Assembly (NCBI GenBank): GCA_964469505.1
Contig: CAYXZO010000003.1
Span: 820 to 64,819, forward strand
Direction of reading: 5' to 3'
Length of the DNA: 64,000 nt
Source of the DNA: an uncultured Lentisphaeria bacterium
GTDB taxonomy: Bacteria; Fidelibacterota; UBA8477; JABMPR01
Part shown: positions 2,543 to 51,936 of the stretch, one piece after another
Position numbering within the stretch: position 1 is the first letter of the stretch
Layout of the letters: each line of letters begins with the position of its first letter
Position numbers and translations under genes: made by a program
The notes under the pieces: model-generated
Told to the model about the DNA's origin: nothing
The model's input: only the letters and a program-made list of their open reading frames with translations
Databases searched by the model: none

Positions 2543-4792
2543 TTACTCCTCTTTTTCCGTCGGTAAAGCCCCGCGCCAGGATTCGGTTCCCGAATCGTCT
2601 TGGGGCCCAAGGGCACCGATCCAGGGTTCATAGGCCAGGCAGGGTGAATCTGGTTGGAGGAAAAACTCTTTAGACAACCGCGGATCGGCCTGGAAGTTAT
2701 TGCTTGCCGTATCCCACCAGCCGGACTGACCATTCCTCCAGAAACAATTAAAATCCAATGGCAAACCGCGTGAGGGGGTGATACGAAATAACTTCTGGTT
2801 TTTAATAAAAATATTCCGCTCAACTCCAACGGAAGTTGTCAAAGCATCCGCGAATACTAATCCGTTGCCCGCTACGGTGTTGTTATTGAACGCGAAATTC
2901 CCGGGTTGGGAAAACTGAAATAGCTCCCCGCTGCCGGCCAATATATTGTGTCGGAAAAAGACAGTTGCCGTTTGGCTTAAGCTGACCACCGGTCCCCGGA
3001 GGCGATAGAATCGATTGCCGAAAATTATCACTTTATCCGCTCTAGATAACCGGAGTGCTCTCGAGCCCCCCTGAAATCGGGAATGGCGCAGGTTCAATTG
3101 TTTGAGATCAACGCCTTCAATTCCCAGTTGCAGCTGAGTGAAATTGCAGTTATTGACTGCTACCAGTTTGTTTTCCCTCAGTTTCACTGCTAAAGGTATG
3201 GTATGAAACTGCATTTTTTCCATGGACATATTGCCTTGAACTAGCGATAGCCCAATATGTTTTACATTATTTAATATTCCACTCTGTAGGTGGAAAGTAC
3301 CGTTTTTCAGCAAAAATCCATAATCCGCCCCATAAACGGTATCCTCAACACTCTCACCTTTCTCGAAATCAGCCAATTCAACCGCAACCCTGTTGCCCTG
3401 AAAAAAGTTGTTTTTCATTGAGATAGTTCTGAGACTCCGACTCTTTAGGCCGTAGCTCCCACCTAAAAAGCGGTTAGAATCAAGATAGGCGGTTTGCGTG
3501 GTATCCACCATCAGGCTGGTGGAGTCCCCGGTGAAAACTGTACGCCAGATAAAAACCTGCCCATATTGTCTGACGTGGCCGCCTACGGCCATAGGACTGT
3601 CAATCAGCCCTTTAAACAAACGAGCCCGCTCCCCCTCTGTGAAGTAGGCTCCTCCTCCGGTGTTGTTTTTAAGCGCGGCTGCAATCAAGTCGGCACCTGC
3701 TATTCGCTTAATAGCCAGCCCCAAACCACCATTTAAAATGGCACTAAATCTACCAATCAGAACACTATCCCCTTTTTCGAACCTGAAACCATCACCGGCA
3801 TTATTTTCACTCCGAAGATTGGTTCCGGCGAAGCTGCCGAATTGATTCACCTGCAACCCGTGGGATTGGCCATCAAGAAATTGAATATGAGACATTTCTA
3901 TGCCTTTGACTTCCCGACAAAAAACACCCGCTCCGCCGTTCCGATGGAATTCCACATCCATGAGCAGCAACGAATCGCCGTCGCTAACCAGCAGTCCATT
4001 CCCTACCGTACGCTGGATACGGCTTTGTTCCAATCGGGAAATAGGCACCGACGTCAATACCACTCCATCCGCACCGATTTCATCTAGCTTCAATCCTACC
4101 AGACGTACACGCTCGACACGCCGCAGAAGTATGCCGAAAGTTTTTACGCGTTGCAGTCCCAGCTCATCCACCCATACCCCCGCAGCATTCTCAGCGACCA
4201 GGGCCGGGCCCTCGAGATCGTGAAAAGCTGCGGTTCTCAATCTCAGTTTTGATCCGCTGTTCAGCTGAATTGCCGGCCCCTGCAAGTGAGTAATTTCCAG
4301 ATCTTCCGCCCGGAGGTTCAGGCTGTCACCTTTGACCCCACCCAGGCGAAAACCTTCTATAAAGCAATCCTTGATTTCCACTATTGAACCGGGGGTAGCT
4401 TCAATGGCCCAGCGGCCACCGATGGACAAATCACAATGTTCCAGCCGCAGATAACCGCCCTCGACTCGAATCAGCGGCATGGTGTCGGTTGTTGCCCCCC
4501 GAAAAATCCAATCCCGCAGGATTACAACTCCATTGGATTTAATGATCAACGCCCCCATGGGGGCTGCGCGCCATACCGGTCTGCGCCGGGGATTGCCCTC
4601 CAAACGCAGCGTACGATCGACTACCATGGTGGTTTCAATAACAACACCCTGATAGCGATAGGCCAGAAACCACAGGGAGGGTTTGACTTGAGAAAGGCTG
4701 GAAATTTTGCGGGCCGGTTGGTGTTCCAGCCTCAGATTTGGGGCGGAACCGCAATTGAAAAGTAGGATACTGAACAAAACAGCCCCTAACAA
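2543..4792 (-). CDS. Large secreted right-handed parallel beta-helix repeat protein (pectate-lyase/NosD-like fold), function unknown
   Basis: Repetitive N/G-rich ~22-aa beta-helix repeats throughout the 843-aa ORF. The longest ORF start (5074) is impossible because it overlaps the SPOR gene and contains the tRNA-Sec. The likely start is the TTG at 4792-4790, giving M-LGAVLFSILLFNCGSAPN (signal/lipoprotein-like). The start codon is uncertain. Confidence 0.55.
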   Translation of the reverse strand: MLGAVLFSILLFNCGSAPNLRLEHQPARKISSLSQVKPSLWFLAYRYQGVVIETTMVVDRTLRLEGNPRRRPVWRAAPMGALIIKSNGVVILRDWIFRGATTDTMPLIRVEGGYLRLEHCDLSIGGRWAIEATPGSIVEIKDCFIEGFRLGGVKGDSLNLRAEDLEITHLQGPAIQLNSGSKLRLRTAAFHDLEGPALVAENAAGVWVDELGLQRVKTFGILLRRVERVRLVGLKLDEIGADGVVLTSVPISRLEQSRIQRTVGNGLLVSDGDSLLLMDVEFHRNGGAGVFCREVKGIEMSHIQFLDGQSHGLQVNQFGSFAGTNLRSENNAGDGFRFEKGDSVLIGRFSAILNGGLGLAIKRIAGADLIAAALKNNTGGGAYFTEGERARLFKGLIDSPMAVGGHVRQYGQVFIWRTVFTGDSTSLMVDTTQTAYLDSNRFLGGSYGLKSRSLRTISMKNNFFQGNRVAVELADFEKGESVEDTVYGADYGFLLKNGTFHLQSGILNNVKHIGLSLVQGNMSMEKMQFHTIPLAVKLRENKLVAVNNCNFTQLQLGIEGVDLKQLNLRHSRFQGGSRALRLSRADKVIIFGNRFYRLRGPVVSLSQTATVFFRHNILAGSGELFQFSQPGNFAFNNNTVAGNGLVFADALTTSVGVERNIFIKNQKLFRITPSRGLPLDFNCFWRNGQSGWWDTASNNFQADPRLSKEFFLQPDSPCLAYEPWIGALGPQDDSGTESWRGALPTEKEE

Positions 4793-4835
4793 CTTAAAGG
4801 GGCTGGTAAAATAAGCTGACCGATCAAAGAGTTTG

Positions 4836-4927
4836 CGGGAATGTATAGGAGTCGAACCTATCTGCCGGGTCCACACCGGCACAACAGCTTTGAAGGCTGC
4901 GGTAGCCACCGGGCTACAGACATTCCC
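4836..4927 (-). tRNA. selC: tRNA-Sec (selenocysteine tRNA), anticodon UCA
   Basis: Minus-strand read: GGGAATGT-CT-GTAGCC-CGGT-GGCTAC-C-GCAGC-CTTCAAA-GCTGT-(22-nt variable arm, GCCGG/CCGGC stem)-ATAGG-TTCGACT-CCTAT-ACATTCCC-G. The 8-bp acceptor stem and 6-bp D-stem are perfect, the D-loop is 4 nt, and the stems follow the bacterial 8/5 rule. Anticodon loop CUUCAAA and T-loop UUCGACU are identical to E. coli selC. No CCA is encoded. Confidence 0.85.
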
Positions 4928-5754
4928 TATTTCAAAGGAACGGGAAACGTGGACAATCCCAGTTCCTTTTGAAGTCTCAGACGATCCTGTTCCGCCTCCC
5001 TGCGGGTAGTATAACCGGTTATCCACACCAGGTAAAGGCGGGTCCCATGGCTGGTTCGAACTACAATTTTGCAATCCCGTCCGGTGCCCCTGATTTCCGA
5101 CAATAGAGCTTCAGCGTTATTACGTTTGCTGAAGGCCCCAGCCTGGAGGGCGTAATTCCCGTCACTCCGCTGCTCTTGTTCTACGGGTTCTCCCAGTTTG
5201 CGGGGGGCCGCTGCCGGAGCAGGGGCGGGAGCAGCCTCCGGAACCCGATCGAAAGCTTTCAACTCCTGGGGTACGTCGAATTCATAGCCTACAAATTGCC
5301 GTCGCGCCCAGGCCAAATCCACTTTACCACTGTCCAATAACCTGGCCGCGATATCAGCCCGTAACAATTGATTCATGGCGGTCTGAATGTAATCGGTGCG
5401 CCTCAGTTTTTTCAAGGCAGGTTTGAAATAGCGCCGGCACTGATGGTACAATCCCTGGGCATAATAGTACTGACCCAGAAAGTAATTTGAATAAACCGCC
5501 CAGCGAGTGCGAGGGTGATTCCGGACAATGGTTTTATAGATCCCAGCCGCCAGGGCCGCATTGCGGGTAGTACGGGCCTGGAGATACAACACCCCCGGAT
5601 GGCCGGGGTATCGGAAAGCCAGGCTATCCAGCGCCTGACGAACTTCCTTAAACCGTCCCGCCTCCAAAGCTTGCAGCAAAGGTGTCAGCTCTTGGGACAA
5701 AGCATTTGAAACCAGAGCACTGACCAGTAAACCGACTGCCAGCCACTTCCTCAC
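4927..5754 (-). CDS. SPOR-domain protein (septal peptidoglycan binding) with N-terminal signal/TM and TPR-like region
   Basis: C-terminal SPOR motif (YALQAGAFSKRNNAEALLSEI...YLVWITGYTTRREAE) and a Pro/Ala-rich linker. The probable start is the GTG at 5754, which overlaps the lapB stop as GTGA and yields MRKWLAVGLLVSALVSNALSQ. Confidence 0.7.
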   Translation of the reverse strand: MRKWLAVGLLVSALVSNALSQELTPLLQALEAGRFKEVRQALDSLAFRYPGHPGVLYLQARTTRNAALAAGIYKTIVRNHPRTRWAVYSNYFLGQYYYAQGLYHQCRRYFKPALKKLRRTDYIQTAMNQLLRADIAARLLDSGKVDLAWARRQFVGYEFDVPQELKAFDRVPEAAPAPAPAAAPRKLGEPVEQEQRSDGNYALQAGAFSKRNNAEALLSEIRGTGRDCKIVVRTSHGTRLYLVWITGYTTRREAEQDRLRLQKELGLSTFPVPLK

Positions 5755-6857
5755 TGTATCTCCAAATGACCACATTGAGGACAAATATACAACAATTGAT
5801 CGCTGGTATAACCACACGCATGACAGGTGCGGTAACGTTGCTTATCCTGCTCCTGCAGGTATTGTTCCATCTCTTTCAACATCTCTTTGGTTTTCCCTAG
5901 TCGACCATATAGTCGTAACAGAGCCAGGAGTATCAACGTGTCGGCTTTATCAGTGGGTATTTCTTCCAGTAGATTAAGAGCTTCCCGCACCTCACCCTTG
6001 CGCTCATAGTAACTGGCTAGGCCCAGCAAAACATCGGGATTATTGGGTTGCTTGCGCCGCAACCGCCGGTAAAAACGTTCCACTTCCTCGAACTCCCCCA
6101 GTTCGAAATAGAGCTTCTCTATTTCGGGGAAAATGGAGACGCCCCGCTGGGGATCAAGTTCGGCAAAAGTAGTGAGATAATCCACGGCATGGCGGAATTG
6201 CCCTTCATCCCGACTTATCAGGCCCAGGTAATAGTACGGAGCGGCACAGAGACCTAATTTAATTGCCTGCCGCAAAAGACTTTTGGCTTCGGATTGATTG
6301 CCTGCCCGAATTTGTTCCACCGCCTGATACGTTTTATATAAAGCCGGCAACTGGGGATCCAAATCGGGATTAAGCTTTTTCTCCTGTTGGAAAGCCTCCA
6401 CGGCCCCTTCCCAATCCCGCAGTGCCACTCGAGCCTCGCGTATGGCTCGCGCAGCCCATCGGTTCTTCCGATCCAGTTCCAGTATTTGAGTAGCATACTC
6501 AATAGCCTGATGATGATCACCCAATTCCTGGTAGTCTTTCACCAAACCGGTAAGCACCATTAGACGGAATGGTGGAGAGAGATCTTCATGGGTCAGCAGG
6601 TCCCGGTGGATTCCTGCGGCTCGCAGGGCATCTCCCTGTTCCCGATAGATTTCACCAATCCGCCAGAATACTTCCAGGCGGCTGGTGTCCCGGTGAGCAA
6701 TCTCCAACAACAGCTTTAATCCCCTGGAGGTGCGTCCCGCCAGTAATGCTCCCAGAGCTTCCACTTCCAAATCTTTAAGGCTACGATGGCGTTTGCGGCG
6801 GAAAAGAGAAAAACCGGGGACCCGGAATTTGGGAAAAGAGAAAAACTTGCGACTCAT
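5751..6857 (-). CDS. lapB: Lipopolysaccharide assembly protein B (TPR repeats plus C-terminal rubredoxin-like zinc ribbon)
   Basis: TPR repeats throughout. C-terminus CHACGYTSDQLLYICPQCGH is a Cx2C...Cx2C ribbon, characteristic of LapB/YciM. Confidence 0.7.
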   Translation of the reverse strand: MSRKFFSFPKFRVPGFSLFRRKRHRSLKDLEVEALGALLAGRTSRGLKLLLEIAHRDTSRLEVFWRIGEIYREQGDALRAAGIHRDLLTHEDLSPPFRLMVLTGLVKDYQELGDHHQAIEYATQILELDRKNRWAARAIREARVALRDWEGAVEAFQQEKKLNPDLDPQLPALYKTYQAVEQIRAGNQSEAKSLLRQAIKLGLCAAPYYYLGLISRDEGQFRHAVDYLTTFAELDPQRGVSIFPEIEKLYFELGEFEEVERFYRRLRRKQPNNPDVLLGLASYYERKGEVREALNLLEEIPTDKADTLILLALLRLYGRLGKTKEMLKEMEQYLQEQDKQRYRTCHACGYTSDQLLYICPQCGHLEIQ

Positions 6858-17111: not shown

Positions 17112-18418
17112 AATTACCGCTGGTAGTTATTGTTGGTCGGCCAAATGTGGGGAAATCCACCTTGTTCAACCGGTTGGTGGGACGGCGTCATGCTATCGTA
17201 CACCCCCAGGAAGGGATAACCCGCGATCGAATAGCGGAAGAAGTGGAATGGAACGGGCGCCGTTTCAGACTGGAGGATACAGGGGGGTACCTACCCCAGG
17301 GAGAAGATGAAATCACCGCCGCCGTCAGGGAACAGGCTTTGGCCGCCGCCCAGGAAGCTCAAGTAGTTATTTTCTTACTGGATGCCCGGGTGGGTCTCAC
17401 CGAAGAAGACATCATATTGGGCCGGATGCTTCGGAAATCGTTCGATAAAGTACTGGTAGCGGCCAACAAGCTAGATACTCCCGGACGGCTGGAAGAATTG
17501 CCTGACCTTTACCGCCTGGGCTGGTCTCAGATTTTCCCCATCAGTGCCCTCAACGGCACCGGAGTGGGTGACCTGTTAGACGCGGTAATTGAGAAGCTCC
17601 CCGAGTCCAAGGTTGTTCCGCCGGAAAAGAAAGTAGTTAGTTTTGCGATTGTCGGAGCCCCCAACGTGGGAAAATCCAGTTTGACCAATGCTCTGTTGGG
17701 GCAAAAACGGCAGATTGTAACCTCCATCCCCGGCACTACCCGTGATGCGGTCAATGCAACCTTCAAATACTATGGTCGCCTGTACGAGATGATTGATACG
17801 GCAGGGCTACGGCGCCAGGCAAAAATCAAAGACTCCTTAGAATTTTACAGTTCGGTCCGTACACAACGGGCCATTCGGCGCGCGGAGATCGTAGTATTGC
17901 TCCTGGACGTGGAACGTATGTTCACCAGGGTGGATGCCAAAGTAGTGGAACAGGTAACGGAAGCCGGTCGTGGCCTGGTGATCGCCATGAACAAATGGGA
18001 TTTACCGGAAAAAACCACCCACACCATGGATCTGATCCGTCGGGAGATCCAGGACCAATTGCCGGAATTGCGTCATTACCCGCTGGTGTTTATCTCTGCT
18101 TTGAAGAAGCGGCGTCTACATACTTTGATGGCTGCCATAGATGAAGTCCACGCAGCCTACCATAGACGTATTTCAACCTCTGAGGCCAATCATTTTCTGG
18201 AAGATGCGCTAGGGCAGCTACAACCACCGGCGGTGAAAGGTAAAAAAATCACTATCAAATACATGACCCAGGCGGAAACAGCTCCTCCACGCTTTCTGTT
18301 CTTTACCAACCATCCGCGTTTGATTACCGAATCCTACCGCAAATACCTGGAAAACAAACTAAGGGAGCGCTTTAATTTCGTCGGGGTACCCTTGAGGTTG
18401 ACCTTCCGTAAAAAATGA
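17102..18418 (+). CDS. der: Ribosome-biogenesis GTPase Der (EngA), tandem GTPase domains plus KH-like C-terminus
   Basis: Two P-loops (GRPNVGKST, GAPNVGKSS) and DTAG motifs. 438 aa. Confidence 0.9.
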   Translation: MELKLPLVVIVGRPNVGKSTLFNRLVGRRHAIVHPQEGITRDRIAEEVEWNGRRFRLEDTGGYLPQGEDEITAAVREQALAAAQEAQVVIFLLDARVGLTEEDIILGRMLRKSFDKVLVAANKLDTPGRLEELPDLYRLGWSQIFPISALNGTGVGDLLDAVIEKLPESKVVPPEKKVVSFAIVGAPNVGKSSLTNALLGQKRQIVTSIPGTTRDAVNATFKYYGRLYEMIDTAGLRRQAKIKDSLEFYSSVRTQRAIRRAEIVVLLLDVERMFTRVDAKVVEQVTEAGRGLVIAMNKWDLPEKTTHTMDLIRREIQDQLPELRHYPLVFISALKKRRLHTLMAAIDEVHAAYHRRISTSEANHFLEDALGQLQPPAVKGKKITIKYMTQAETAPPRFLFFTNHPRLITESYRKYLENKLRERFNFVGVPLRLTFRKK

Positions 18419-19983
18419 GGGCGCTGAAAGCACTGATGCTTTTATCGGTGACCGGTGCACTAGCGTTGCGGGCGCAGGCACCGGCAGCCCTAAAATGCGG
18501 TCTGCCGCTGTGGGCGCAACAAACTCGACGGGCAGCCTTGAGGTGGGATCGCGGCCTGAGTTATTTGAACCTCAGTCTGGTCAGCCCCCGAGGACTATTT
18601 CGCATTCACTACACCCTTACCGGTAGCGACGCGGTGGATACCACCGAATGGGTGGATGGTCACCCTCGTTTCGTGGTAGAGACTGCCCTGGCAGCCGAAA
18701 AAGCCTATGCTCTCCTGGTGGATAGCCTAGGTTTTATGCCGCCGGTCAGTGATAATGGAGAAGATGGCCCTGAGCTGGATATTTACATCAAGAACTGGGG
18801 CGGTCTGGTTTATGCCTATACCAATTTCACTCAAGCAGGCCAACCAACTTATATGGTCATCGACAATGATTACCGGGAAGTCAATTACTCCACCCACGGA
18901 TTGGATGCCCTACGCGTAACGGTGGCTCACGAATTTTTCCACATGGTACAACTGCGGTATGCGGCCCCGCTGGGGGACCGGCAGGATGATGTGTTTTTAT
19001 TTGAACTGTGTAGCGTGTGGTTCGAGGATAAGTGCTACCCGGAAGTCAACGATTATGTGAACTATGTTCCCTATGTTCTGAATTCCAACCCTACCCCACC
19101 GATTAATTCCAATTCCAACGCCATGTACGGGGCAGGCTTATTCGCGAAGATTCTGGACCGCTTCTACGGTATAGGCAACGGCAAGCATATTATTCTGGAC
19201 CTCTGGGAACACTTTGCCCAAGAGCGGGCCTTACCGGCGCTCCACGATGTACTGGAGCAAGGCCCCTGGCATAGTTCCCTGGGAGAAGCACTAAGTCTGT
19301 ACGGCCTGCTTAACTGTTTCAGCGGACGTCGGGCAGCACCCTTTTCATATTCCGATGCTGCATTATTTCCAACCCCACCTGATTCACAGATAACCTTGCT
19401 TGCAGTTTATCCCCAGGATTATCAGCTCCCGGCTATCCCTTTGCGAGTCAGCTATTATTCTTTTTCTCCTGTGAGCTTTGACTCCCTTTACTTAATCAAA
19501 TCCGATTTCGTCCCCGCTGAAATAGTTGCCCAAAGCGGTGTCTACTGGAGTACCGAGTCAGCTAAGAAGTTGGGAGCAGTGGGGAATTTCTATCTGGAAG
19601 CCGGGGCCGTGGATGTGGGCGACCAAATACTGGTTATCGTGGCTAACGGCCAGGAATCTACGGCAGGTTGGTTTCCTCTGCGATTGCGAGGGCGAAATCT
19701 ACCTCTTTCTTTAGCAATTCAGCGCCTCTTCCCCAGTCCTGTAGGAACAGGTGAAACCGTTACCTTAGACGTCACTCTTCCTTACTCGGACGTAGTCACC
19801 ATCCAGCTATATGATTTATTGGGCAGGCGTTTACTCAAATCTGCGTTTGATTTAAGCAAAGGAATTCATTTGCTTCCCTTGTCTCTCCCTTCTGATCTAG
19901 CCACGGGGCTCTATTTAGTAGGAGTGCAGACCTCCAGGCAGAACATTGGCGCCACTTTGATAATTACCCGCAAATCACAATGA
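18415..19983 (+). CDS. Secreted HExxH zinc metallopeptidase with T9SS C-terminal sorting domain
   Basis: Signal peptide, HEFFHMV motif with a downstream Glu (gluzincin-like), and a C-terminal ~80-aa beta-sandwich tail (VTIQLYDLLGRRL...GLYLVGVQTS) resembling a Por secretion tail. Confidence 0.55.
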   Translation: MRALKALMLLSVTGALALRAQAPAALKCGLPLWAQQTRRAALRWDRGLSYLNLSLVSPRGLFRIHYTLTGSDAVDTTEWVDGHPRFVVETALAAEKAYALLVDSLGFMPPVSDNGEDGPELDIYIKNWGGLVYAYTNFTQAGQPTYMVIDNDYREVNYSTHGLDALRVTVAHEFFHMVQLRYAAPLGDRQDDVFLFELCSVWFEDKCYPEVNDYVNYVPYVLNSNPTPPINSNSNAMYGAGLFAKILDRFYGIGNGKHIILDLWEHFAQERALPALHDVLEQGPWHSSLGEALSLYGLLNCFSGRRAAPFSYSDAALFPTPPDSQITLLAVYPQDYQLPAIPLRVSYYSFSPVSFDSLYLIKSDFVPAEIVAQSGVYWSTESAKKLGAVGNFYLEAGAVDVGDQILVIVANGQESTAGWFPLRLRGRNLPLSLAIQRLFPSPVGTGETVTLDVTLPYSDVVTIQLYDLLGRRLLKSAFDLSKGIHLLPLSLPSDLATGLYLVGVQTSRQNIGATLIITRKSQ

Positions 19984-20588: not shown

Positions 20589-20693
20589 ATCATAACTTTT
20601 TCAATACGAAAAATCTCATCCATAAAAGCGGTGGAGTTCGCCAGACCAAACGGTATATTTGACCACCGAACTCGCAATAGAAGGCGACAACCA

Positions 20694-21626
20694 ATGAAAA
20701 AAATCTGGTATGTACTCTTCAGCCTGGCATTACTGAGTGTTCCTTCAATGGCTGCCCAAAGGTTAGTGCTGGCGGAAGAGTTCACCAACGTTGGGTGACC
20801 ATCCTGCGGTCCCACTGAGGACTACCTGGACGGGTTCCAGGCACAACATCCCGAAAGCGTGGTTTTCATTGCTTACCACATGTCTTGGCCCCAAGGCAAC
20901 GACCCTTACTATCTGTACAACACTACTGAGAATAATGCACGGCGAAGCTATTATGGTGTCAATGCAACTCCCAGCTTAGCGGTCAATGGTTCGCTGACAA
21001 ATCTCTGGCCTCCGCAACCGGCGTGGGGTAATCTCATATTACAGGAAGCCACCATATCGGCGCCTATCAGCATTGACATTGGAGGGGCATATGACACAAC
21101 TGCTCGTCAGGGGACAGCGGAAATCGCCATCTTTACTGAAGGAACGGTGAGCGGTTCCTTCATCCTACATTTTGTCCTGATTGAGAACAATCTATACTTC
21201 ATGGGTGCCAATGGATATCCCAACCATAACAGTGTAATGCGCGACATGATTCCCTCTGCCGCCGGTACACAGATCACTTTAAGCGCAGGTGACACAACCT
21301 TCGCCAATATTGATTTCTCCGTACCGAGCCCCATCGTCCAAGGTAATGCGGTGTTGGTTGCGTTCGTCCAAAACCCGGTCAATAAGGATGTCCTGAATGC
21401 GGGGCGGGTAGCGGTGCTGGACCTAGCGACCGGGTGTGGCAACGCCATAGGGGATGTGGGGGCGGACGGGCAGATTACCGTGCAAGACCTGGTTCAACTG
21501 GTCAACATCGTCATCGGCATTGATAATGATCCCGACGCGTGTGCTTTACAAGCCGGTGATCTGAACGGGGATGCTCAGGTCAATGTACAGGATCTGGTCT
21601 TGCTGGTGGATTTGATTTTACAGTAG
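20694..21626 (+). CDS. Candidate selenoprotein: secreted thioredoxin-fold protein with U-x-x-C redox motif (in-frame TGA at 20796-20798) and C-terminal dockerin type I domain
   Basis: ATG 20694 opens MKKIWYVLFSLALLSVPSMAAQ (signal peptide), then RLVLAEEFTNVG-[TGA]-PSCGPTEDYLDGFQAQHPESVVFIAYH.... This reading frame is the same as the downstream ORF 20859..21626. A thioredoxin-fold cis-Pro motif (GVNATPSLAVNG) is present. Two dockerin calcium-binding repeats (DVGADGQITVQD, DLNGDAQVNVQD) sit at the C-terminus. selC lies in the same window. Confidence 0.6.
20825..20841 (+). promoter_or_regulatory. Candidate bacterial SECIS hairpin downstream of the in-frame UGA
   Basis: CCUGGA-CGGGU-UCCAGG is a perfect 6-bp stem with a G/U-containing apical loop. 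The loop starts about 33 nt after the UGA, within the 16-37 nt range used for bacterial SECIS elements. Confidence 0.4.
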
Positions 21627-21650
21627 CCCTTTCTTCATACGAGAGGTGTA

Positions 21651-21684
21651 AAAAATCCCGGCATATTGTCGGGATTTTTTATTT
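21651..21684. terminator. Bidirectional rho-independent terminator
   Basis: AAAAATCCCG-GCATATTGT-CGGGATTTTTT hairpin flanked by A- and T-runs. Sits between the selenoprotein gene and tadA. Confidence 0.6.
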
Positions 21685-22496: not shown

Positions 22497-25217
22497 CTAT
22501 TTGACCAGAAGCACCTTCAGGCTTTGATCACTTCCACTAGCTTTCAGCCGTACGAGATAGACGCCGGCAGGCATCGGCTGCCCCTGGGCATCAGTACCAT
22601 TCCACTGGACGGTATGATAACCAGCCGCCAAGGATTGCGATACCAGTGTGCGGACGAGGCGACCGCGGATATCGAACACTTGCAGGGTCACTTCGCTAGT
22701 AGCGGGTAAGCCAAACCGAATGTTGGTACTGGGGTTGAATGGGTTGGGATAATTACCAACCAGCTCGACATGGGTAGGAATCGCTATCGTATTATCTACC
22801 GCGTCAGTAAAGTGGATATTCGCCGCTGCGGCCACCGCATCGGCTAAAGTCATATCCGGAATATTATCCGCCGGGTCATCATTATGACAGGCCAGACAGA
22901 CGTGGTTCAAATCCAGCGAGGCAGGCCGAGTCGCGTCGTCCCGGACAGCAGAACCATCATCGGTGAACATGCTGTTATCATCGACAGTGATTCTAAAGAG
23001 ATGGGACCGGACATCAGCCTTGAAACCACTTTGGCCGCGAACTGCACCAGATTTTGCCGCATAGGGCATATGGCATTGTTCGCAATCGGTCATCTCGGGA
23101 TGGTTAGCAGCGACGCTGGTAGCCTCGTTGGCATGACAGGTGCTGCATTCAATCTTGATACCATCGCCACCCCAGAGTACTCGTTTATGGGGATCATGGC
23201 AGGTACCGCAGTTCAAACCGGCGGCAAAGTGCGGACTGGCTACAAATTCATCCCATTGCTCATGATGGCGCACAAAACCACCACTGGCATCAATGGGTTG
23301 GCCCCAACCGCGACTATGGCAATTACCGCAGAGATAGGTGATGTCATCAGCGTTCGGATCCGGTTGGACAACTCCACCATAGTCACCGTAATCCAGACCG
23401 TTGCCGCCAACATTGGGTTGGTATACCTCATCAATGTCCGCTGGATCGTGAGAAGCAACATGATTCCCACCAGGTCCATGACAATCTTCGCAGGCCACTC
23501 CGGCTTCTACGAAATTACCTAAGCTATACCCGGGCAGCCAGCTGCTATCGGGAGTCGCACCGGTGGTATGGCAGCGGAAGCAGCCGTAATTGTACTTTTT
23601 GTCTACGTGATCGACATCGTAGTCAACCCATCCGAGATCTTCGCCTTCGTAGAAATTAAACTGGTTGTGACCTCCACCAGGATTGATCACGCTGCTGGCG
23701 GTACCCGCGATCACACCAGTGGTATCTACGAAACGCACCTTCCACCCGTAACCGCCGATGACTCCCGCGATCTCATCCCAACTGGCACCTAAACCGGACA
23801 TCCAGCTATCTTCGAAGTTTACCACGAAACTGGGATAACTGGGGGCAGTGGCATTTTCAATAACGTGGAATTTGTACGGGTGACCACTATTCTGCCACTC
23901 CTCGTAGATGTTATAACCGAGGACATCATTCACTTCATCATGGCAAGCCCTACAGGTTTGGGAACCTACATAATCGGCCGGTTGGGCATCATGCATGTGA
24001 TGAGCGAATTCCGCCAGTTCATCCACCGTTTTGTCAGGAATGTCATCATTGGGATCATCGTTATGGCAGCTCAAGCAAGCATGATACAGGTCCAGTGAGG
24101 CTGGACGTGTATCATCGTCGCGCACTGCGGAGCCATCATCGGTAAACATACTCTCGGTATTGGGGGTAATGCGGAACAGGTGCGAACGAACATCAGCTTT
24201 GTAACCACTTTCTCCCCGGGCAGTACCTGATTTAGCGGCAAATGGCATATGACATTCGATACACTCGTGAGTGCCGGGGTGAATGTTGTGTGCTTCCTGG
24301 TTGGGATGACAGGTGGCACATTGTATAGTGATGCCGTCACCATTCCACAACACCCGTTTGTGAGGATTATGGCAAGTACCGCAGTTTAATCCAGCCTCGA
24401 AATGGGGACTGGCTACAAATTCATCCCACTGTTCATGATGGCGCACAAAGCCACCACTGGCATCGATGGGCTGCCCCCACCCACGGCTGTGGCAGTTACC
24501 GCATAGATAGGTAATATCATCCGAATTTGGATCGGGCTGGACCACACCGCCGTAATCGCCGTAATCCAGGCCGTCACCACCAATGTTTGGCTGATAAACC
24601 AGATCAATGTTGGTGGCGGAAGGCGCATTTACGTGGTCACTACCGGGACCATGGCAGGACTCGCAGGTTACGCCTTGCTCAACGAAAGTACCTAAACTGT
24701 AGCCCGGCAACCAGCTACTGTCAGGCGAGGCACCAGTAGTGTGGCAGCGGAAACAACCGTAGTTGTACTTCTTGTTCACGTGGTCCACATCATAGTCGAC
24801 CCATCCAAGATTCTCGCCGCCAAAGAAATTGAACTGATTGTGACCACCACCGGGGTTGATCACACTACTGGCAGTTCCCACAATTACACCCGTATTATCT
24901 ACGAACCTCACTTTCCAGCCGAAACCACCTATTACTCCAGCAATCTGATCCCAGGAGGTTCCCAGGCCAGACATCCAGGTATCCTCAAAGTTTACCACGA
25001 AACTGGGATAACTGGGGGCAGTGGCGTTCTCAATGACATGGAATTTGTACGGGTGACCGCTATTCTGCCAGGCGTCATAAATATTATACCCGGAACCGGT
25101 CACATCGGCGGTACCGTGACAGGCATTACAAGCCGCAGATCCCACATAGGTCTGAGCTAGTAATGTTGGTACCGTCAGAACGAGGAACGCACAGAAGAGT
25201 AGCTTTACTTTGTGCAT
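22497..25217 (-). CDS. Secreted hexadecaheme c-type cytochrome with T9SS C-terminal sorting domain
   Basis: Signal peptide and 16 CxxCH motifs: 8 per half (CNACH, CFRCH, CESCH, CGNCH, CGTCH, CATCH, CIECH, CLSCH; then CRACH, CFRCH, CEDCH, CGNCH, CGTCH, CSTCH, CEQCH, CLACH). The C-terminal ~75 aa (LQVFDIRGRLVRTLVSQ...GVYLVRLKASG...KVLLVK) matches a Por secretion tail. Confidence 0.85.
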   Translation of the reverse strand: MHKVKLLFCAFLVLTVPTLLAQTYVGSAACNACHGTADVTGSGYNIYDAWQNSGHPYKFHVIENATAPSYPSFVVNFEDTWMSGLGTSWDQIAGVIGGFGWKVRFVDNTGVIVGTASSVINPGGGHNQFNFFGGENLGWVDYDVDHVNKKYNYGCFRCHTTGASPDSSWLPGYSLGTFVEQGVTCESCHGPGSDHVNAPSATNIDLVYQPNIGGDGLDYGDYGGVVQPDPNSDDITYLCGNCHSRGWGQPIDASGGFVRHHEQWDEFVASPHFEAGLNCGTCHNPHKRVLWNGDGITIQCATCHPNQEAHNIHPGTHECIECHMPFAAKSGTARGESGYKADVRSHLFRITPNTESMFTDDGSAVRDDDTRPASLDLYHACLSCHNDDPNDDIPDKTVDELAEFAHHMHDAQPADYVGSQTCRACHDEVNDVLGYNIYEEWQNSGHPYKFHVIENATAPSYPSFVVNFEDSWMSGLGASWDEIAGVIGGYGWKVRFVDTTGVIAGTASSVINPGGGHNQFNFYEGEDLGWVDYDVDHVDKKYNYGCFRCHTTGATPDSSWLPGYSLGNFVEAGVACEDCHGPGGNHVASHDPADIDEVYQPNVGGNGLDYGDYGGVVQPDPNADDITYLCGNCHSRGWGQPIDASGGFVRHHEQWDEFVASPHFAAGLNCGTCHDPHKRVLWGGDGIKIECSTCHANEATSVAANHPEMTDCEQCHMPYAAKSGAVRGQSGFKADVRSHLFRITVDDNSMFTDDGSAVRDDATRPASLDLNHVCLACHNDDPADNIPDMTLADAVAAAANIHFTDAVDNTIAIPTHVELVGNYPNPFNPSTNIRFGLPATSEVTLQVFDIRGRLVRTLVSQSLAAGYHTVQWNGTDAQGQPMPAGVYLVRLKASGSDQSLKVLLVK
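22757..25088. repeat. In-frame tandem duplication (2 x ~1173 bp) within the cytochrome gene
   Basis: The two 391-aa protein halves are about 85% identical. Antisense shadow ORFs recur at an offset of exactly 1173 nt (23568 vs 24741; 23240 vs 24413). Confidence 0.8.
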
Positions 25218-35299: not shown

Positions 35300-35947
35300 A
35301 TGTTAGTAACTAAACCAGCACCTGACTTTAAAGCTATGGCAGTAATGCCGGATAATTCCTTTGAGGAGGTTCAGCTCTCCAACTACCGGGGACAAAAGGT
35401 GGTTCTATTTTTCTACCCCATGGATTTCACCTTTGTATGCCCTACTGAGATTTTGGCTTTCGACCATCGGCTGGAAGAGTTTAAAAAACGTAACGTGCAA
35501 GTGTTAGGGTGCTCCACTGACTCTCATTACAGCCATTTAGCCTGGAAAAACACCCCAGTAGATAAAGGTGGTATTGGTAACATTCAATATCCCCTGGTCA
35601 CCGACATCGATAAAACCATCGCTCGTGCTTATAATGTGTTGGTGGAAGCTAAGCCAGCTACTGTCTATGTAGATGAAGAAGGTGAAATGCTGACGTCAGT
35701 GGACGGAACCGTAGCCTTACGGGCTTCTTTCCTGATCGACGAGGAAGGCATTATCCGCCACGCGGTTATCAATGACCTTTCCTTGGGACGTAACATTGAC
35801 GAAATGCTGCGAATGGTGGATGCCCTCAGCTTTTATCAGCAGCATGGAGAAGTTTGTCCCGCCGGTTGGCAGGAAGGTCAAGAAGCTATGGAAGCCAGCC
35901 CTGAGGGCGTGGCCAAATACCTAGCCAAACACGCCCAGGAACTGTAA
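35300..35947 (+). CDS. Typical 2-Cys peroxiredoxin (AhpC/Tsa family)
   Basis: Peroxidatic Cys motif FTFVCPTEI and resolving Cys near the C-terminus (GEVCPAGW). 215 aa. Confidence 0.9.
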   Translation: MLVTKPAPDFKAMAVMPDNSFEEVQLSNYRGQKVVLFFYPMDFTFVCPTEILAFDHRLEEFKKRNVQVLGCSTDSHYSHLAWKNTPVDKGGIGNIQYPLVTDIDKTIARAYNVLVEAKPATVYVDEEGEMLTSVDGTVALRASFLIDEEGIIRHAVINDLSLGRNIDEMLRMVDALSFYQQHGEVCPAGWQEGQEAMEASPEGVAKYLAKHAQEL

Positions 35948-43974: not shown

Positions 43975-45270
43975 TTAATAATACCCGAGTCCCTTAAGTA
44001 AATGCTCTATGCGATTTTGACCCATAAGTTCTAGATATTTATCGGCTTCCCGTTTGAGCAGCCCAAACTCTGAACCAGGGGATAAACAAAGATTACGCTC
44101 CTCCCGGGGATCCTTTTGCAAATCATAGGCTTCATGATTGCCATGGCCATGGGCGATCCATTTGAAACGACCATCGAATACACTGACCTGATCGTGGCGG
44201 AAAGGATCACCCGCCACCGGATCCAACTTATCGAGGCCAGCTAGAATTTCCACGGGTGTCTTCAGAAAAGCCAGTGCCAAGTTCCTTTTAGGCAAGAAAT
44301 TGGTACCATCAATCATATACTGCTTTACGGCTGGGAAGAGATCCTGATGTTGGATTAAATCCTTTACGGTTTCCCCTTTAGTTTGGGCTGGGAAATGCCA
44401 TAGTAGTGGAACATGCAATACTTCCTGGTATAAATTGAAAACATGGTGGAAATGATTATGCTCTCCCAGCAATTCCCCATGATCAGCCGTAATAATAACA
44501 ATTCCCTCGTTCCAGAACCATTCAACCAGCGGGAGCTGGAAAAGCTCTTCCAAACCATCGACCAAATCACTTATCTCCGCCTGATACAACTGCCGTAAGA
44601 TTTCCCAAACACCAGGAGCTAAAGTTCTTCCTTCCACATAGAAGTTGCGCCAGTCGTGATTTATTCGTTGTGCTTGCCGCCATTGATCTTCGCGGCTGGT
44701 ATTGAGGATCATCCTTTCCTTTTCAGGAGAAGGGCTGTATGGAGTATGGGGGCCGGTGAACTGAAGGAAAAGAAACAGACGACTTTTTATAAGCTGTTCC
44801 CCCAGGCCCCGCAGTATTTTTACTGTTTCAGTGAAGATCCTCTGCCCGGGAAGGATAATTCGCTCAAATCGCAACTCCTGTGATTGCTCGCTGAATTTTT
44901 CGGTGTCGCTCCATATTTCATAAAATTCATCAAACCCGCTATTCAAACCGGTGATGTTTCCCAGCAAAGGATTGGAAGCGATGCCGATATTGGTATAACC
45001 CTGCTCTTTTAGAAAGTTCATCAACGTTGATTTCGAATCAGTGAGTATGAGATGGCCCTCTTCAACTTGGTGTTCCGGGGGGATTAAGCCTGTGAACATG
45101 GAAGCGTGGCTGGGCGGAGTCCAGGGTGAGGGTGTATAGGCCTGTGTAAAAACATAACTTGTCTTGGCTAATCTGCCCAGGAACAAGTGTTGCGCTTTTC
45201 CGGTAGGGGAAAAAAGGGCGTCAAACCGGGTGGCGTCTAAGGAAATGAGAAGTATCGGTGGGTACTGCAT
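43975..45270 (-). CDS. Sulfatase-like hydrolase/transferase (alkaline-phosphatase superfamily); lacks the canonical C-x-P-x-R formylglycine motif
   Basis: Metal-binding N-terminus LISLDATRFD and a C-terminal ITADHGELLGEH motif. Cys is replaced by Trp and Arg by Ser at the sulfatase signature (PWTPPSHAS). Confidence 0.6.
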   Translation of the reverse strand: MQYPPILLISLDATRFDALFSPTGKAQHLFLGRLAKTSYVFTQAYTPSPWTPPSHASMFTGLIPPEHQVEEGHLILTDSKSTLMNFLKEQGYTNIGIASNPLLGNITGLNSGFDEFYEIWSDTEKFSEQSQELRFERIILPGQRIFTETVKILRGLGEQLIKSRLFLFLQFTGPHTPYSPSPEKERMILNTSREDQWRQAQRINHDWRNFYVEGRTLAPGVWEILRQLYQAEISDLVDGLEELFQLPLVEWFWNEGIVIITADHGELLGEHNHFHHVFNLYQEVLHVPLLWHFPAQTKGETVKDLIQHQDLFPAVKQYMIDGTNFLPKRNLALAFLKTPVEILAGLDKLDPVAGDPFRHDQVSVFDGRFKWIAHGHGNHEAYDLQKDPREERNLCLSPGSEFGLLKREADKYLELMGQNRIEHLLKGLGYY

Positions 45271-45309
45271 GGTGCTGGTTACGTTCAGCTAAGCTTCAAC
45301 CAACAAGTT

Positions 45310-46647
45310 TTAGCCTGTCTGTCGCCAATCCCGATAAATGGCTTTTGCAAGATCAACCCCCATTTTCCCGGGCCAGATCGGGCGCCACCAGGGCAAACCT
45401 GCTAAGTGCTGAAAGAGGAAAAGTTTGATAATCAAGCTTAAAGTATATGAGAGGCTGGTAGCCCAGGCAGCCCCATTGATTCCATATAAAGGAATCCACC
45501 ACAGATTTGCGCCTATATTTACTACTACCGTAAAAAGCCCAACCCAGAAATTGAGCTCCGGCCGGCCCCGGGCGGCCAAATCATTGGCTAAAACCCTACC
45601 TAGACTGCTGGCGGTTATTCCGGGAAGTAAATAAATAAGGGCAGTAGCGGAGAGTATATACTTTGTTCCAAATAATCCCCTTACCAGCGGGTGCGCAAGG
45701 AGAGCTAGCGCTATTGCAGCCAGTAAAGAAGCTAAGAAAGTAAACCCTCCGACTATGGCGGTGAGTCTCCCTTGCTCGGCTTTTACAGAATGTAGTTCAG
45801 CTAGCCGGGGAAATAGAGCGGTACTCACTGATTGAGACAAAAGCCAGAGCTTCTCTCCAATTTGAACAGCTACGATATATAGTCCTGCCGATGAAACTCC
45901 TGCCAGCATATTTACCAGTAGTAAATCGAGACGATAGTTCAGGAAGCCGATAATATTCCCCAGGTGACTTTTCCAAGCATAAGACAATAGCCGGCCCCAG
46001 GTAACGTCTCGTGGAGACGTCTCAGAACTGATTCTTTCCTGCTTGATTCTATGGATATACCAAATTGCTAGTAGCACTCCACCTAACTGACCAATGGTAA
46101 AAGCAGCCAGAGCCATTGCCGGGGAGGTTGTCACAAATGTCAACAAAATCCAGGCAGCCAATAACGCGACAGGAGGAAAAACCAAAAATACCAGATTGAA
46201 CCGCCACAGATCCCTAATCCCCAGCAAAATGTTAGGTAACAATTCCAGCAGGAGCAAAATCGGAAAAATAACCACACTGAAGATCAACAGATCTACTTCA
46301 ATTGACGGGAACAAGGTTTCGTGAAAGATGACCCCAATAATTCCTACCCCCCAGCCACCTATTGAAAGCACACCCCAAGCAAGCAAAGTTTTCTTTATAG
46401 CTGTCAGGAGGCTTAAATCTTTCTTAGCCAGGTGATACACTAGTGAAGGTCCCAGTCCCAAGTTCAACAATTTTGTCAACAATTGGGGTATTAACAGAGC
46501 CACACCGTATTCGCCATAGCCTGCTTTACCCAACCAGCGGGCCAACAAGATCGTATAGGCCAGCGATAAAACGGTAACCACAACCTGGCGAGCAAAAGTC
46601 CCAGAAATTTGAACCGTTAAAGGGCGCTTTGTAGAAATGATAGTCAA
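45310..46647 (-). CDS. Polysaccharide flippase (MOP/Wzx-like), 12-14 TM
   Basis: 445-aa polytopic membrane protein with a MATE-like / polysaccharide biosynthesis protein pattern. Confidence 0.7.
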   Translation of the reverse strand: MTIISTKRPLTVQISGTFARQVVVTVLSLAYTILLARWLGKAGYGEYGVALLIPQLLTKLLNLGLGPSLVYHLAKKDLSLLTAIKKTLLAWGVLSIGGWGVGIIGVIFHETLFPSIEVDLLIFSVVIFPILLLLELLPNILLGIRDLWRFNLVFLVFPPVALLAAWILLTFVTTSPAMALAAFTIGQLGGVLLAIWYIHRIKQERISSETSPRDVTWGRLLSYAWKSHLGNIIGFLNYRLDLLLVNMLAGVSSAGLYIVAVQIGEKLWLLSQSVSTALFPRLAELHSVKAEQGRLTAIVGGFTFLASLLAAIALALLAHPLVRGLFGTKYILSATALIYLLPGITASSLGRVLANDLAARGRPELNFWVGLFTVVVNIGANLWWIPLYGINGAAWATSLSYTLSLIIKLFLFQHLAGLPWWRPIWPGKMGVDLAKAIYRDWRQTG

Positions 46648-46656
46648 AATCGTACT

Positions 46657-47817
46657 CTATCCATTGAGTAAAATATCATAAAATTTAATTAGCCTAGAGA
46701 TGACCACTCTTTCACCGAAATGATCAAGAGCATATTTACGAATTGCTTTAAAATCGTATTTATTATATCTGCCGTACATTGTAACCATTGCTTTTGCCAA
46801 TTCGTCCGGATTATCACGTGGAACAAGAATCCCCGTTTCAGGATTAATGAATTCTTCCGGTCCGCCACTACGAGTGGCTATGACCGGTCGCCCCCTAGCC
46901 ATGGCCTCGATCAAAGTCACTCCAAAAGTTTCCGTACGGCTGCTGGAGATAACCACATTGTGGTTGTCCATCAATTCGAGTGCCGATATTCGGTTATCAG
47001 TTAAAAATGTTACGTCTTTGCTAAGATTTAATTTCACGCAAAGATTCTTGAGCGATGTTTCTTCCTGTCCCCATCCGGCTATTGTAAGTTTGGTTCCCTC
47101 GGGTAACGATTTTCTGGCCATAGCAAAAGCTTTCAGTAGAACGTCAAAACCCTTTATCGATCGCAGGTGGCCTATTGATAAAAACCTAAAGTTATCCGAA
47201 GGTGTATCAGACATAAATATAGTCTCGAATTCCTCACCGATAATATTCGGCAAAACATCCCAGTTGTTTTTCTCCAAATTAAACCGGCGTAGGATGCCAT
47301 TCATTAAAAACCTGCTCACAGCAAGGTTTAAATCAGAGGACATGAACACCTTTTTCGAAAGAATTTTATGCCACGGTGCCAGATCTCCTACAATCATGCG
47401 CGAGGAGTGCTCAGTTAACATTAAAGGCAATTTTAGATCTTTTTTAAGGCTCCTCCCCAGCACTCCCGCATACAATGTGGCGTGAGCATGGATCAGATCC
47501 GGCAAACCGAATTGTTCAATATATCTTTTGGCCAACTTTTTTCCGGCAAGTGTTAGGGTAAGGGCTGTCCCCCCCGGGACAAAAGTCAACCGATTAATCT
47601 GCTTTTGTTGGAAAAGTCGAGGATCACTAGCGCCAACTTCACGTTCAGTGTCGCCTTGATTATTTACCTCACCTTTATTCTGCAGATCGACATGGACGAC
47701 TCCAACCTCTATTCCATTTTTTCGAAGAGCCTCAACCTGTCTTTTAATGAAAATACCCTTAATAGGATTATTTATGCTGGGATACCACGAGGCTACAATG
47801 AGTATATGCACGTTCAA
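46657..47817 (-). CDS. Glycosyltransferase family 4 (GT-B)
   Basis: C-terminal motif ETFGVTLIEAMARGRPVIATRSGGPEEFI. Lies in the ~40% GC segment. Confidence 0.8.
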   Translation of the reverse strand: MNVHILIVASWYPSINNPIKGIFIKRQVEALRKNGIEVGVVHVDLQNKGEVNNQGDTEREVGASDPRLFQQKQINRLTFVPGGTALTLTLAGKKLAKRYIEQFGLPDLIHAHATLYAGVLGRSLKKDLKLPLMLTEHSSRMIVGDLAPWHKILSKKVFMSSDLNLAVSRFLMNGILRRFNLEKNNWDVLPNIIGEEFETIFMSDTPSDNFRFLSIGHLRSIKGFDVLLKAFAMARKSLPEGTKLTIAGWGQEETSLKNLCVKLNLSKDVTFLTDNRISALELMDNHNVVISSSRTETFGVTLIEAMARGRPVIATRSGGPEEFINPETGILVPRDNPDELAKAMVTMYGRYNKYDFKAIRKYALDHFGERVVISRLIKFYDILLNG

Positions 47818-48833
47818 CCCCGTTTAAGTAAAACGCGGTTGGCGATATAAGCTTTCAACCCCTCCCTTCGAACTCGTCGCCAGGGGCTGCTTTCAGGCTG
47901 TTCCACCTTATAATCAAAAGTTATTAAGGCTGATTTCAGATGCCTATTAATCAATTCCACTTCCAGAGCAGTAATCTCCTGTTGCCACGCTTTCAAACGT
48001 GCTTTACTGATACCAGTAAAAGTATTCCCGGTAACGCTGTTACCTCCCCAAGCATTGCCTAAAAAAGTTGGTTGAAGTAAAGTGGAGTGAAATTGTATCC
48101 CGGCCTGTTCCGCTAACTTATGCAATATTTCTTCCGGTTTAGTAACTAAATCTTCATATTTCACAACGAAGTAGTCATCCAAACTATATTTATTTTCCTC
48201 AGCAAAGAAATATGACCATTGGAGAGATCTCAAGATTTTATCGAGGTGAGGAAACCCTTTATCCATAGTTTGAAGGTATTTTCTTAATGTCACCAGATTA
48301 GCATAAGGGTTGCGGATAACATGAAAAAAAACAGCCTCAGGGTAGAGCTTCTTTAATCTTGCGGCGTGCTCAAAAGTACCCACCGTTTTTTCTACTACCC
48401 GCATATGTTCGGGCATCTGCGCATTGAACAAAGCCTGATATAGGGCCTCGAAATATCCGCGTATTAAGTTACTATCATCTGTCGATTCGATACTTTCGAT
48501 AGCTTTTTTGAATAGTTCTAAATTAAAAATCCCCTTGGCATCGCTATCGGCTAGCTTATTACCAATGCGATTCCTGACTTCAACCCATTCACATGCACTC
48601 CTGCGAAATACATTTATATCCCAATCCGATATCTTTTCCCAACTTCGTAAGGGATACCTAGTCCACCAATTAAGAATAAAATGAAATTGAGTCTCTATGG
48701 GCAAAACGAACAGCTCCGGGTGCCCATCGAACAAAGAACGTAATAAGCTGGTGCCGGATTTATGAGCACCGGAAATGAAAATAGGACGCCACATTGTCTT
48801 ATTCTTTTTAGTGTTCGTTTGTGTTCCCATCAT
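47814..48833 (-). CDS. Sulfotransferase (PAPS-dependent family)
   Basis: 5'-PSB motif PIFISGAHKSGTSLL plus a downstream 3'-PB-like region. The start probably overlaps the upstream stop as ATGA at 48833. Low-GC segment. Confidence 0.7.
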   Translation of the reverse strand: MMGTQTNTKKNKTMWRPIFISGAHKSGTSLLRSLFDGHPELFVLPIETQFHFILNWWTRYPLRSWEKISDWDINVFRRSACEWVEVRNRIGNKLADSDAKGIFNLELFKKAIESIESTDDSNLIRGYFEALYQALFNAQMPEHMRVVEKTVGTFEHAARLKKLYPEAVFFHVIRNPYANLVTLRKYLQTMDKGFPHLDKILRSLQWSYFFAEENKYSLDDYFVVKYEDLVTKPEEILHKLAEQAGIQFHSTLLQPTFLGNAWGGNSVTGNTFTGISKARLKAWQQEITALEVELINRHLKSALITFDYKVEQPESSPWRRVRREGLKAYIANRVLLKRG

Positions 48834-51925: not shown

Positions 51926-51936
51926 GGCTGATTTGC

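Follow-up and report, generated by a model that had tools for sequence, protein, structure and literature searches.

The 64,000-nucleotide stretch of DNA analysed here (hereafter the window; contig CAYXZO010000003.1 of an uncultured bacterium labelled as a member of the Lentisphaeria) carries on its forward strand a single reading frame of 310 codons that is interrupted by an in-frame TGA. The frame begins at ATG 20694 with MKKIWYVLFSLALLSVPSMAAQRLVLAEEFTNVG, reaches the TGA at positions 20796-20798 and continues with PSCGPTEDYLDGFQ in frame to the TAG at 21624-21626. The open reading frame (ORF) 20859..21626 forms part of this frame, and the read-through translation was found to be exactly as quoted in a preliminary description of this DNA, which had proposed a secreted selenoprotein hidden behind the TGA.

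In public gene calls of the exact window sequence the gene is represented by a 248-amino-acid (aa) fragment (P0001) starting with MSWPQGN, and one public assembly additionally calls a separate 34-aa mini-ORF upstream of it. The preliminary description had correctly expected a truncated product, but the length given there, 255 aa from MVFIAYH, corresponds to the version with the GTG start. Since the calls begin downstream of the TGA, the annotated product lacks the signal peptide, the first β-strand and the active site.

We propose that the region represents one gene encoding a secreted selenoprotein of the GOS_C superfamily, in which the UGA is decoded as selenocysteine (Sec) and which takes part in selenol/thiol exchange at the cell surface. 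We assign a probability of roughly 85% to this reading.

The in-frame TGA and its decoding

A search with the read-through protein returned close relatives that are nearly all truncated calls of approximately 250 aa, together with several full-length cysteine (Cys) homologs. The DNA of eight of the truncated relatives was inspected and a mini-ORF of 34 to 38 aa was detected immediately upstream in each case. When read through, these loci likewise consist of one frame with the TGA in the same column, embedded in the motif FTNxG-U-P-[SY]-C.

A scan at one genome per species provided 34 further loci, 24 of them with TGA and 10 with TGC or TGT at the U column. The TGA-containing genome loci span the Marinimicrobia/Neomarinimicrobiota, Ignavibacteria, Gemmatimonadetes, Coatesbacteria and Eisenbacteria as well as one metagenome-assembled genome (MAG) labelled as “Lentisphaeria”. 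Together with the eight metagenome relatives they form a set of 32 distinct Sec-type relatives, reaching down to approximately 26% identity, all of which (32/32) carry TGA and never TAA or TAG at the identical column. In the Cys homologs (about 15, comprising P0007, P0012-14, P0016, P0017, P0019 and the 10 genome loci) the first Cys of the CxxC motif aligns with the TGA, as had been predicted, e.g. in ENFTNTSCGPC of P0007, EEFTNVGCVPC of P0016 and EEFTNVRCGPC of P0017.

The U/C column, C38, E28 and P93 are invariant in both protein alignments (A3 and A4), and no residue other than Cys was found in place of the Sec. The conservation at the protein level resumes right after the TGA and includes a switch between the serine codons TCC and AGC among the relatives, which indicates that selection acts on the amino acid in the read-through frame. 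The stretch from the TGA to the first Met is conserved as protein, as are the 34 aa upstream of the TGA, a feature that the preliminary description had named as potential support. Furthermore, the identical gene including the TGA was detected in two independent metagenome assemblies of the Joint Genome Institute (JGI).

TGA is at the same time the commonest stop codon in the window, where it ends 23 of the 42 family-supported ORFs, so that a general recoding of this codon is not indicated. Some orthologs of the selenoprotein gene terminate in TGA themselves. A second copy of the family was not found in the window by tblastn, and a crude scan of the window for other TGA-interrupted UxxC or CxxU genes gave only chance matches that appeared to be out of frame.

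The SECIS (selenocysteine insertion sequence) element that had been expected downstream of the TGA was found as a covarying hairpin at SECIS distance. The hairpin comprises six base pairs (CCUGGA-CGGGU-UCCAGG), its stem beginning 26 nt and its loop 32 nt after the UGA. According to the bacterial consensus (bSECISearch-type criteria) the loop is located 16-37 nt from the UGA, a range into which the loop in the window fits. The pairing was evaluated in 15 sequences belonging to the subgroup of the window protein and to a sister subgroup, between which the protein identity is only about 40-50%. All of the 90 cells are paired (100%), a value reached by none of 500 shuffles, while slid registers are paired to at most 64%.

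Compensatory double changes occur at three of the six pairs (C-G/G-C/U-A; C-G/U-A; G-C/A-U) and one more pair varies from U-A to U-G. The compensation takes place in part at synonymous sites, CUG to UUG (Leu) pairing with CAG to CAA (Gln). The loop retains a G at position 2; the apical-loop guanosines of the SECIS element were emphasised in the study that predicted the GOS_C family (PMC2398784). A candidate second helix near the UGA (columns 25-29 with 35-39 of alignment A5) is paired to only 77% and register-shifted in the window sequence, and it is not claimed here.

Other subfamilies possess hairpins of their own, located 11-24 nt after the UGA. In the group with a tail for the type IX secretion system (T9SS) the hairpin reads CUGAUCC-GGUCCU-GGAUCAG, with a change from C-G to U-A in loci L021 and L022, and in L010 and L023 a long stem is predicted downstream of the UGA (z = -2.95). 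The mean folding energy of the downstream region was -18.1 kcal/mol in Sec loci vs -12.1 kcal/mol in Cys loci (Mann-Whitney p = 0.0016), a difference for which the GC content is a possible confounder.

The window also contains the gene of the tRNA-Sec (selC), located 15.9 kb from the selenoprotein gene. ARAGORN and Rfam (RF01852, 72.4 bits vs a gathering score of 47) agree in its identification, in line with the genuine selC about 16 kb away that had been noted previously. The selC gene is solitary, its neighbours (flanks 2546-5817) being genes for a beta-helix/NosD-like protein and a SPOR-domain protein instead of selA or selB. The listed 843-aa ORF 2543..5074 overlaps the tRNA-Sec and its true start must consequently be located downstream of the tRNA gene.

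Judged by the sequence comparisons, the TGA within the frame is a true selenocysteine codon, the observed pattern lying far beyond chance. The features of the gene and its selC are listed in Table 1.

Table 1. Features of the selenoprotein gene and of selC, with positions in the window
Feature	Position	Strand	Basis or remark
Complete coding sequence of the selenoprotein	20694..21626	+	310 codons, Sec = codon 35, TAG stop 21624-21626; orthologs with the same read-through layout
Predicted Sec-type signal peptide, aa 1-22, MKKIWYVLFSLALLSVPSMAAQ	20694..20759	+	Read from sequence: KK, hydrophobic core, SMA/AQ site
Thioredoxin-like (DUF1223/Omp28 N-terminal) domain, aa 23-118	20760..21047	+	Profile matches, homolog model, Foldseek
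UGA selenocysteine codon, U35, first residue of U-P-S-C	20796..20798	+	TGA/Cys column in relatives
Resolving Cys codon, C38 of UxxC	20805..20807	+	Invariant column, alignments A3 and A4
SECIS core hairpin, stem CCUGGA/UCCAGG, apical loop CGGGU	20825..20841	+	Pairing and covariation, 15 sequences
Codon of invariant Pro93, putative cis-Pro before β3	20970..20972	+	Invariant in A3 and A4; homolog model
Beta-sandwich (Omp28 core), approximately aa 124-241	21063..21416	+	PF11551, profile match to PDB 2r2c, homolog model strands 130-246
Dockerin type I-like tail, two Ca-loop/helix repeats, aa 253-305	21450..21608	+	PF00404
Strong intrinsic terminator 3' of the gene	21648..21682	+	Scan: stem-loop and T-run
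selC, tRNA-Sec, anticodon UCA	4835..4927	-	ARAGORN; Rfam RF01852

Family, fold and C-terminal tail

Profile searches and a homolog model place the predicted product in the Omp28 family and suggest that it is composed of a signal peptide, a thioredoxin-like domain, a beta-sandwich and a dockerin type I tail. The residues 1-22 presumably function as signal peptide; this region has no lipobox Cys and an equivalent N-terminus is present in all relatives. The Omp28 profile of Pfam (PF11551) matches aa 84-241 with 57.7 bits, passing the gathering threshold of 34.9, while the match to DUF1223 (PF06764; aa 28-132) remains with 18.1 bits below the threshold of 30.7. The cutoffs of two related NCBIfam models are not reached either: NF033782 (Omp28 lipoprotein family) gave 75.3 bits vs a cutoff of 150, the signal peptide lacking the Cys, and NF045500 (“Omp28-related selenoprotein”) gave 59.0 bits vs 200 for aa 21-245 after replacing U by C. 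The UxxC motif of the NF045500 family is present as U35-P-S-C38.

Compared to solved structures, the profile of the family matched Omp28 of Porphyromonas gingivalis (2r2c, 1.8e-9) via its central part and the DUF1223 protein 2axo (6e-7) via its N-terminal part, and many thioredoxins and DsbA proteins at the CxxC motif. The AlphaFold (AF2) model of the Cys homolog P0007, which is 38% identical to the window protein, has a predicted local distance difference test score (pLDDT) of 80. In this model β1 is followed by the CxxC motif at the start of α1, by β2-α-β3-β4-α, by the beta-sandwich (strands 130-246) and by a sorting domain. P99 of P0007, which corresponds to P93 of the window protein, is located directly before the strand 100-103.

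According to a Foldseek search with the P0007 model, the top match in the PDB was HBP35 (5y1a; E 5e-16, TM 0.56/0.62, 344 columns), followed by 2axo (TMt 0.67). The thioredoxin fold with a cis-Pro suggested in the preliminary description is recovered as thioredoxin topology of the N-terminal region when the Cys homolog is modelled, the invariant P93 lying just before β3. The protein is, however, not a thioredoxin of the classical type but appears to combine a thioredoxin-like fold of the Omp28 family/DUF1223 kind with a subsequent beta-sandwich, while the proposed fusion to a dockerin was retained.

The isolated 69-aa tail scored 23.9 bits with Dockerin_1 (PF00404; gathering score 22.9) and shows two Ca-loop repeats, in agreement with the dockerin C-terminus described before; six of eight orthologous tails pass the threshold as well. 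Two cysteines are shared by every dockerin-tailed ortholog, C248 (21435-21437) ahead of the dockerin repeats and C283 (21540-21542) in between. A disulfide linking them might staple the tail, which would be notable in a predicted disulfide oxidoreductase.

In the relatives the Sec module heads further architectures: proteins with a T9SS tail (approximately 352 aa), untailed proteins (approximately 250 aa), proteins with FG-GAP-like repeats and a T9SS tail (approximately 880 aa) and proteins with thrombospondin type-3 (TSP3) repeats, a dockerin-like segment and a T9SS tail (approximately 577 aa). The T9SS sorting domains which replace the dockerin in relatives are consistent with an extracellular location, and as judged from their predicted domains all of these architectures suggest that the proteins are extracytoplasmic or surface-located.

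The 577-aa form characterises a subgroup of Marinimicrobia (L032, L034-L036, L041 and L043) that is nearest to NF045500 (L041, 184 bits vs 200). Its Sec-Omp28 module is followed by thrombospondin type-3-like Ca repeats, the dockerin-like segment and the T9SS tail; its SECIS-like hairpin begins about 11 nt after the UGA, and a conserved cluster of tRNA-Gln/Arg/Glu genes follows the gene. Two Sec paralogs (L013 and L016) were detected in the MAG JAJRSW01 (Neomarinimicrobiota Dive96_bin1.149), a dockerin-tailed form of approximately 310 aa and a form of approximately 890 aa with FG-GAP-like repeats and a T9SS tail.

The superfamily was predicted in 2008 by Zhang and Gladyshev as the marine selenoprotein “hypothetical protein GOS_C” on the basis of 74 Sec sequences, 312 Cys homologs and a SECIS-like element, and a thiol-based redox function was suggested for it (PMC2398784). 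GOS_C corresponds to the NCBIfam model NF045500 (2026 review PMC13188914). The literature search found no publication pairing Omp28 or DUF1223 with a selenoprotein, and nothing relevant for dockerin with selenoprotein. The reading of the preliminary description as a dockerin-tailed, probably secreted selenoprotein is supported, but the idea is not new.

The window protein shares with GOS_C/NF045500 the predicted thioredoxin-like fold, the UxxC motif with one Sec, the existence of Cys homologs, the hairpin after the UGA and the affiliation with a marine bacterial family. In contrast to the 577-aa proteins nearest to NF045500, it has half the length, lacks TSP3 repeats and a T9SS tail and ends in a plain dockerin, and its gene has a different SECIS hairpin located farther from the UGA. 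Since both NCBIfam cutoffs are missed and the tail and the SECIS element differ, the protein is, by these sequence features, placed as a diverged, dockerin-tailed branch of the Omp28-related/GOS_C superfamily outside the NF045500 equivalog itself.

Similar relations exist to other known proteins. The central beta-sandwich region is homologous to that of Omp28 of P. gingivalis (PF11551; 2r2c), but unlike Omp28/NF033782 proteins the window protein has no lipobox Cys, scores under the cutoff and carries Sec and a dockerin tail. With DUF1223 (PF06764; 2axo, Atu2684) it shares by profile and, according to the homolog model, by fold the N-terminal thioredoxin-like domain with CxxC, whereas the Pfam score is below the gathering threshold and the same tail is not known from DUF1223 proteins. 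The secreted or periplasmic DsbA-like, DsbG-like and Trx-like UxxC families of marine metagenomes also have Sec at the N-terminal attacking position of a thioredoxin fold and a predicted thiol-based redox role (PMC2398784). The window protein differs from them as a member of an Omp28/DUF1223-like subfamily with an additional beta-sandwich and a putative surface-targeting module.

Proposed function and alternative explanations

The closest functional model is provided by HBP35 of P. gingivalis, whose CxxC motif (C48/C51) confers an insulin-reducing activity exceeding that of E. coli thioredoxin, and which is displayed at the cell surface via its C-terminal domain and binds hemin through its C-terminal part (PMC2907840). 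Earlier work cited therein reported that a dsbA mutant of E. coli regained the relevant activity with HBP35. As deduced from the model of the Cys homolog, HBP35 (5y1a) and the window protein appear to share a three-part architecture, in which an N-terminal thioredoxin-like domain with the redox motif precedes a beta-sandwich and a domain for sorting or anchoring forms the C-terminus. They differ in Sec vs Cys and in dockerin vs T9SS C-terminal domain, and no match was detected at the sequence level.

By analogy, the window protein probably functions in extracellular thiol/selenol-disulfide exchange and would represent a selenium counterpart of the surface thioredoxin-like HBP35. The UGA at 20796 would be decoded by the tRNA-Sec of the window, with a SelB-type factor presumably being recruited by the hairpin at 20825-20841 within the coding sequence. 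The mature protein is expected to present U35-P-S-C38 at the N-terminus of helix α1, followed by the beta-sandwich and the dockerin-type tail, and after Sec-dependent export the tail may keep it on the cell surface or close to it. The selenolate of U35 would attack disulfides or other electrophilic S, Se or metal centres of extracellular substrates, and C38 could resolve the selenenylsulfide formed by U35.

Several observations weigh against this proposal. A location outside the cell raises the question of the electron donor. No selA, selB or selD was found among the ORFs of the 64-kb window, so that the machinery is represented by selC alone. Folding of the single sequence downstream of the UGA was no better than that of shuffled sequences (z = -0.12), for which reason the SECIS element is discernible only by comparison, and no Rfam SECIS family matched positions 20650-20950 in gathering and permissive scans. 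The evidence for the fold derives from a Cys homolog of 38% identity, as the window fragment 20799-21623 modelled without an alignment reached a pLDDT of 35 and was discarded. The dockerin is a borderline assignment with 19.4 bits vs 22.9 for the whole protein, and no cohesin was detected among the window ORFs scanned.

An alternative reading takes the TGA as a nonsense mutation, as the lesion of a pseudogene or as an error made in sequencing or assembly and leaves the downstream fragment as the only product, which agrees with the 248-aa annotation of the gene callers. Its probability is nevertheless negligible given that TGA recurs in the same column in 32 relatives of approximately 26% identity and upwards and is identical in independent assemblies, and that the conserved parts before and after the TGA would be left out of a fragment missing signal peptide, β1 and active site. 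On the comparative data the pseudogene, sequencing-error and two-gene readings are considered excluded, and the strain-specific nonsense mutation or read error considered in the preliminary description falls with them. Reassignment of the UGA to Trp, Gly or Cys by general or local recoding is slightly less remote but still very improbable: some uncultured lineages do reassign UGA, and neither selA nor selB nor selD turned up among the window ORFs, but UGA serves as stop for 23 of the 42 family-supported window ORFs and for some of the orthologs, a genuine tRNA-Sec is present, and the specific pairing of UGA with Cys in homologs together with a covarying hairpin is a signature of Sec.

The main functional rival of disulfide exchange is the binding of metals, metalloids or heme: in a genuine selenoprotein, U-x-x-C could serve at the cell surface to bind or detoxify Hg, Cu, As, Se or heme iron. 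HBP35 binds hemin via its C-terminal part, copper-resistance ScsC/DsbA-like CxxC proteins are among the weak profile matches, and an apparently secreted multiheme cytochrome is encoded 0.9 kb away. However, no metal-binding family was matched, the cytochrome gene is encoded on the opposite strand and its synteny is not kept by other species, and an invariant cis-Pro in combination with CxxC at a helix N-terminus is typical of redox-active thioredoxin folds, which makes this function unlikely. A somewhat less likely extension of the proposed selenol/thiol exchange would regard the dockerin-tailed Sec-Omp28 proteins as a distinct subfamily of Marinimicrobia-related bacteria docked on a non-cellulosomal cohesin scaffold of the cell surface, where they might act as extracellular selenol redox catalysts, for instance together with the multiheme cytochrome in the reduction of external disulfides, polysulfides or metalloids. 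If true, a cohesin-docked selenol catalyst would amount to a novel type of selenium biochemistry outside the cell.

The kind of selenoprotein described here is already known and no new mechanism is revealed. What is added is the comparative proof for the gene, the covarying SECIS element, the breadth of architectures and phyla and the link to HBP35. The case illustrates how standard annotation mishandles selenoproteins, every public copy being split into a mini-ORF of 34 to 38 aa and a truncated “Omp28”, and the dedicated NCBI model NF045500 falls short of the branch found in the window. The comparative set, made up of 32 Sec loci, approximately 15 Cys homologs and SECIS hairpins particular to the subfamilies, of which one shows clear covariation, could serve to extend the GOS_C family to members with a dockerin tail, a T9SS tail, an FG-GAP fusion or no tail in several phyla of the Fibrobacteres-Chlorobi-Bacteroidetes (FCB) group and neighbouring phyla. 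Furthermore, the structural link to HBP35 provides a family that has remained “hypothetical” for 18 years with a testable function as surface thiol-disulfide oxidoreductase.

Genomic neighbourhood and host lineage

The selenoprotein gene is located between a YigZ/Impact_N gene and a gene for a tadA-like deaminase, which is followed by a tRNA-Ser(CGA). This arrangement is common to several orthologs, and nothing functionally suggestive was detected in the gene neighbourhood.

The gene of the multiheme c-type cytochrome (22497-25217, minus strand; 906 aa), located on the opposite strand 0.9 kb downstream from the selenoprotein gene, encodes Cytochrome_C7, C554 and c3 motifs and a FlgD_ig/Por_Secre_tail T9SS sorting domain, and its product looks secreted or surface-located. 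It adjoins the selenoprotein gene only in contigs of the same organism, the synteny being absent from other species. Two genes upstream of the selenoprotein gene (18415-19983, plus strand) a protein of 522 aa is encoded, for which only faint DUF6055 and Por_Secre_tail signals were obtained. Its position is kept in the ortholog locus L001, where the protein comprises 528 aa and has a weak Por_Secre_tail match.

With regard to the host, the closest named GatB protein (62%) belongs to a MAG labelled “Lentisphaeria” (P0021), and the other named GatB relatives are nearly all from Candidatus Marinimicrobia with at most 62%. As the GatB relatives are mostly Ca. Marinimicrobia, the host appears to be a deep Marinimicrobia-related lineage. 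The closest ortholog in the genome set (L011, CAZIWX010000010.1; 53%) is likewise from a “Lentisphaeria” MAG. Considering that nearly all other relatives are Marinimicrobia, the L011 and P0021 MAGs may carry an incorrect label or belong to an unplaced lineage.

Elsewhere in the window, the gene at 35300-35947 (plus strand) encodes a 1-Cys peroxiredoxin (AhpC-TSA and 1-cysPrx_C) in the Cys form, as an intact ORF without in-frame TGA. The genes at 43975-53660 (minus strand) constitute a large surface-polysaccharide cluster with a sulfatase, a flippase, several glycosyltransferases (GT1/GT2/GT4), a sulfotransferase and a YfhO-like membrane protein, which suggests the formation of a sulfated exopolysaccharide.

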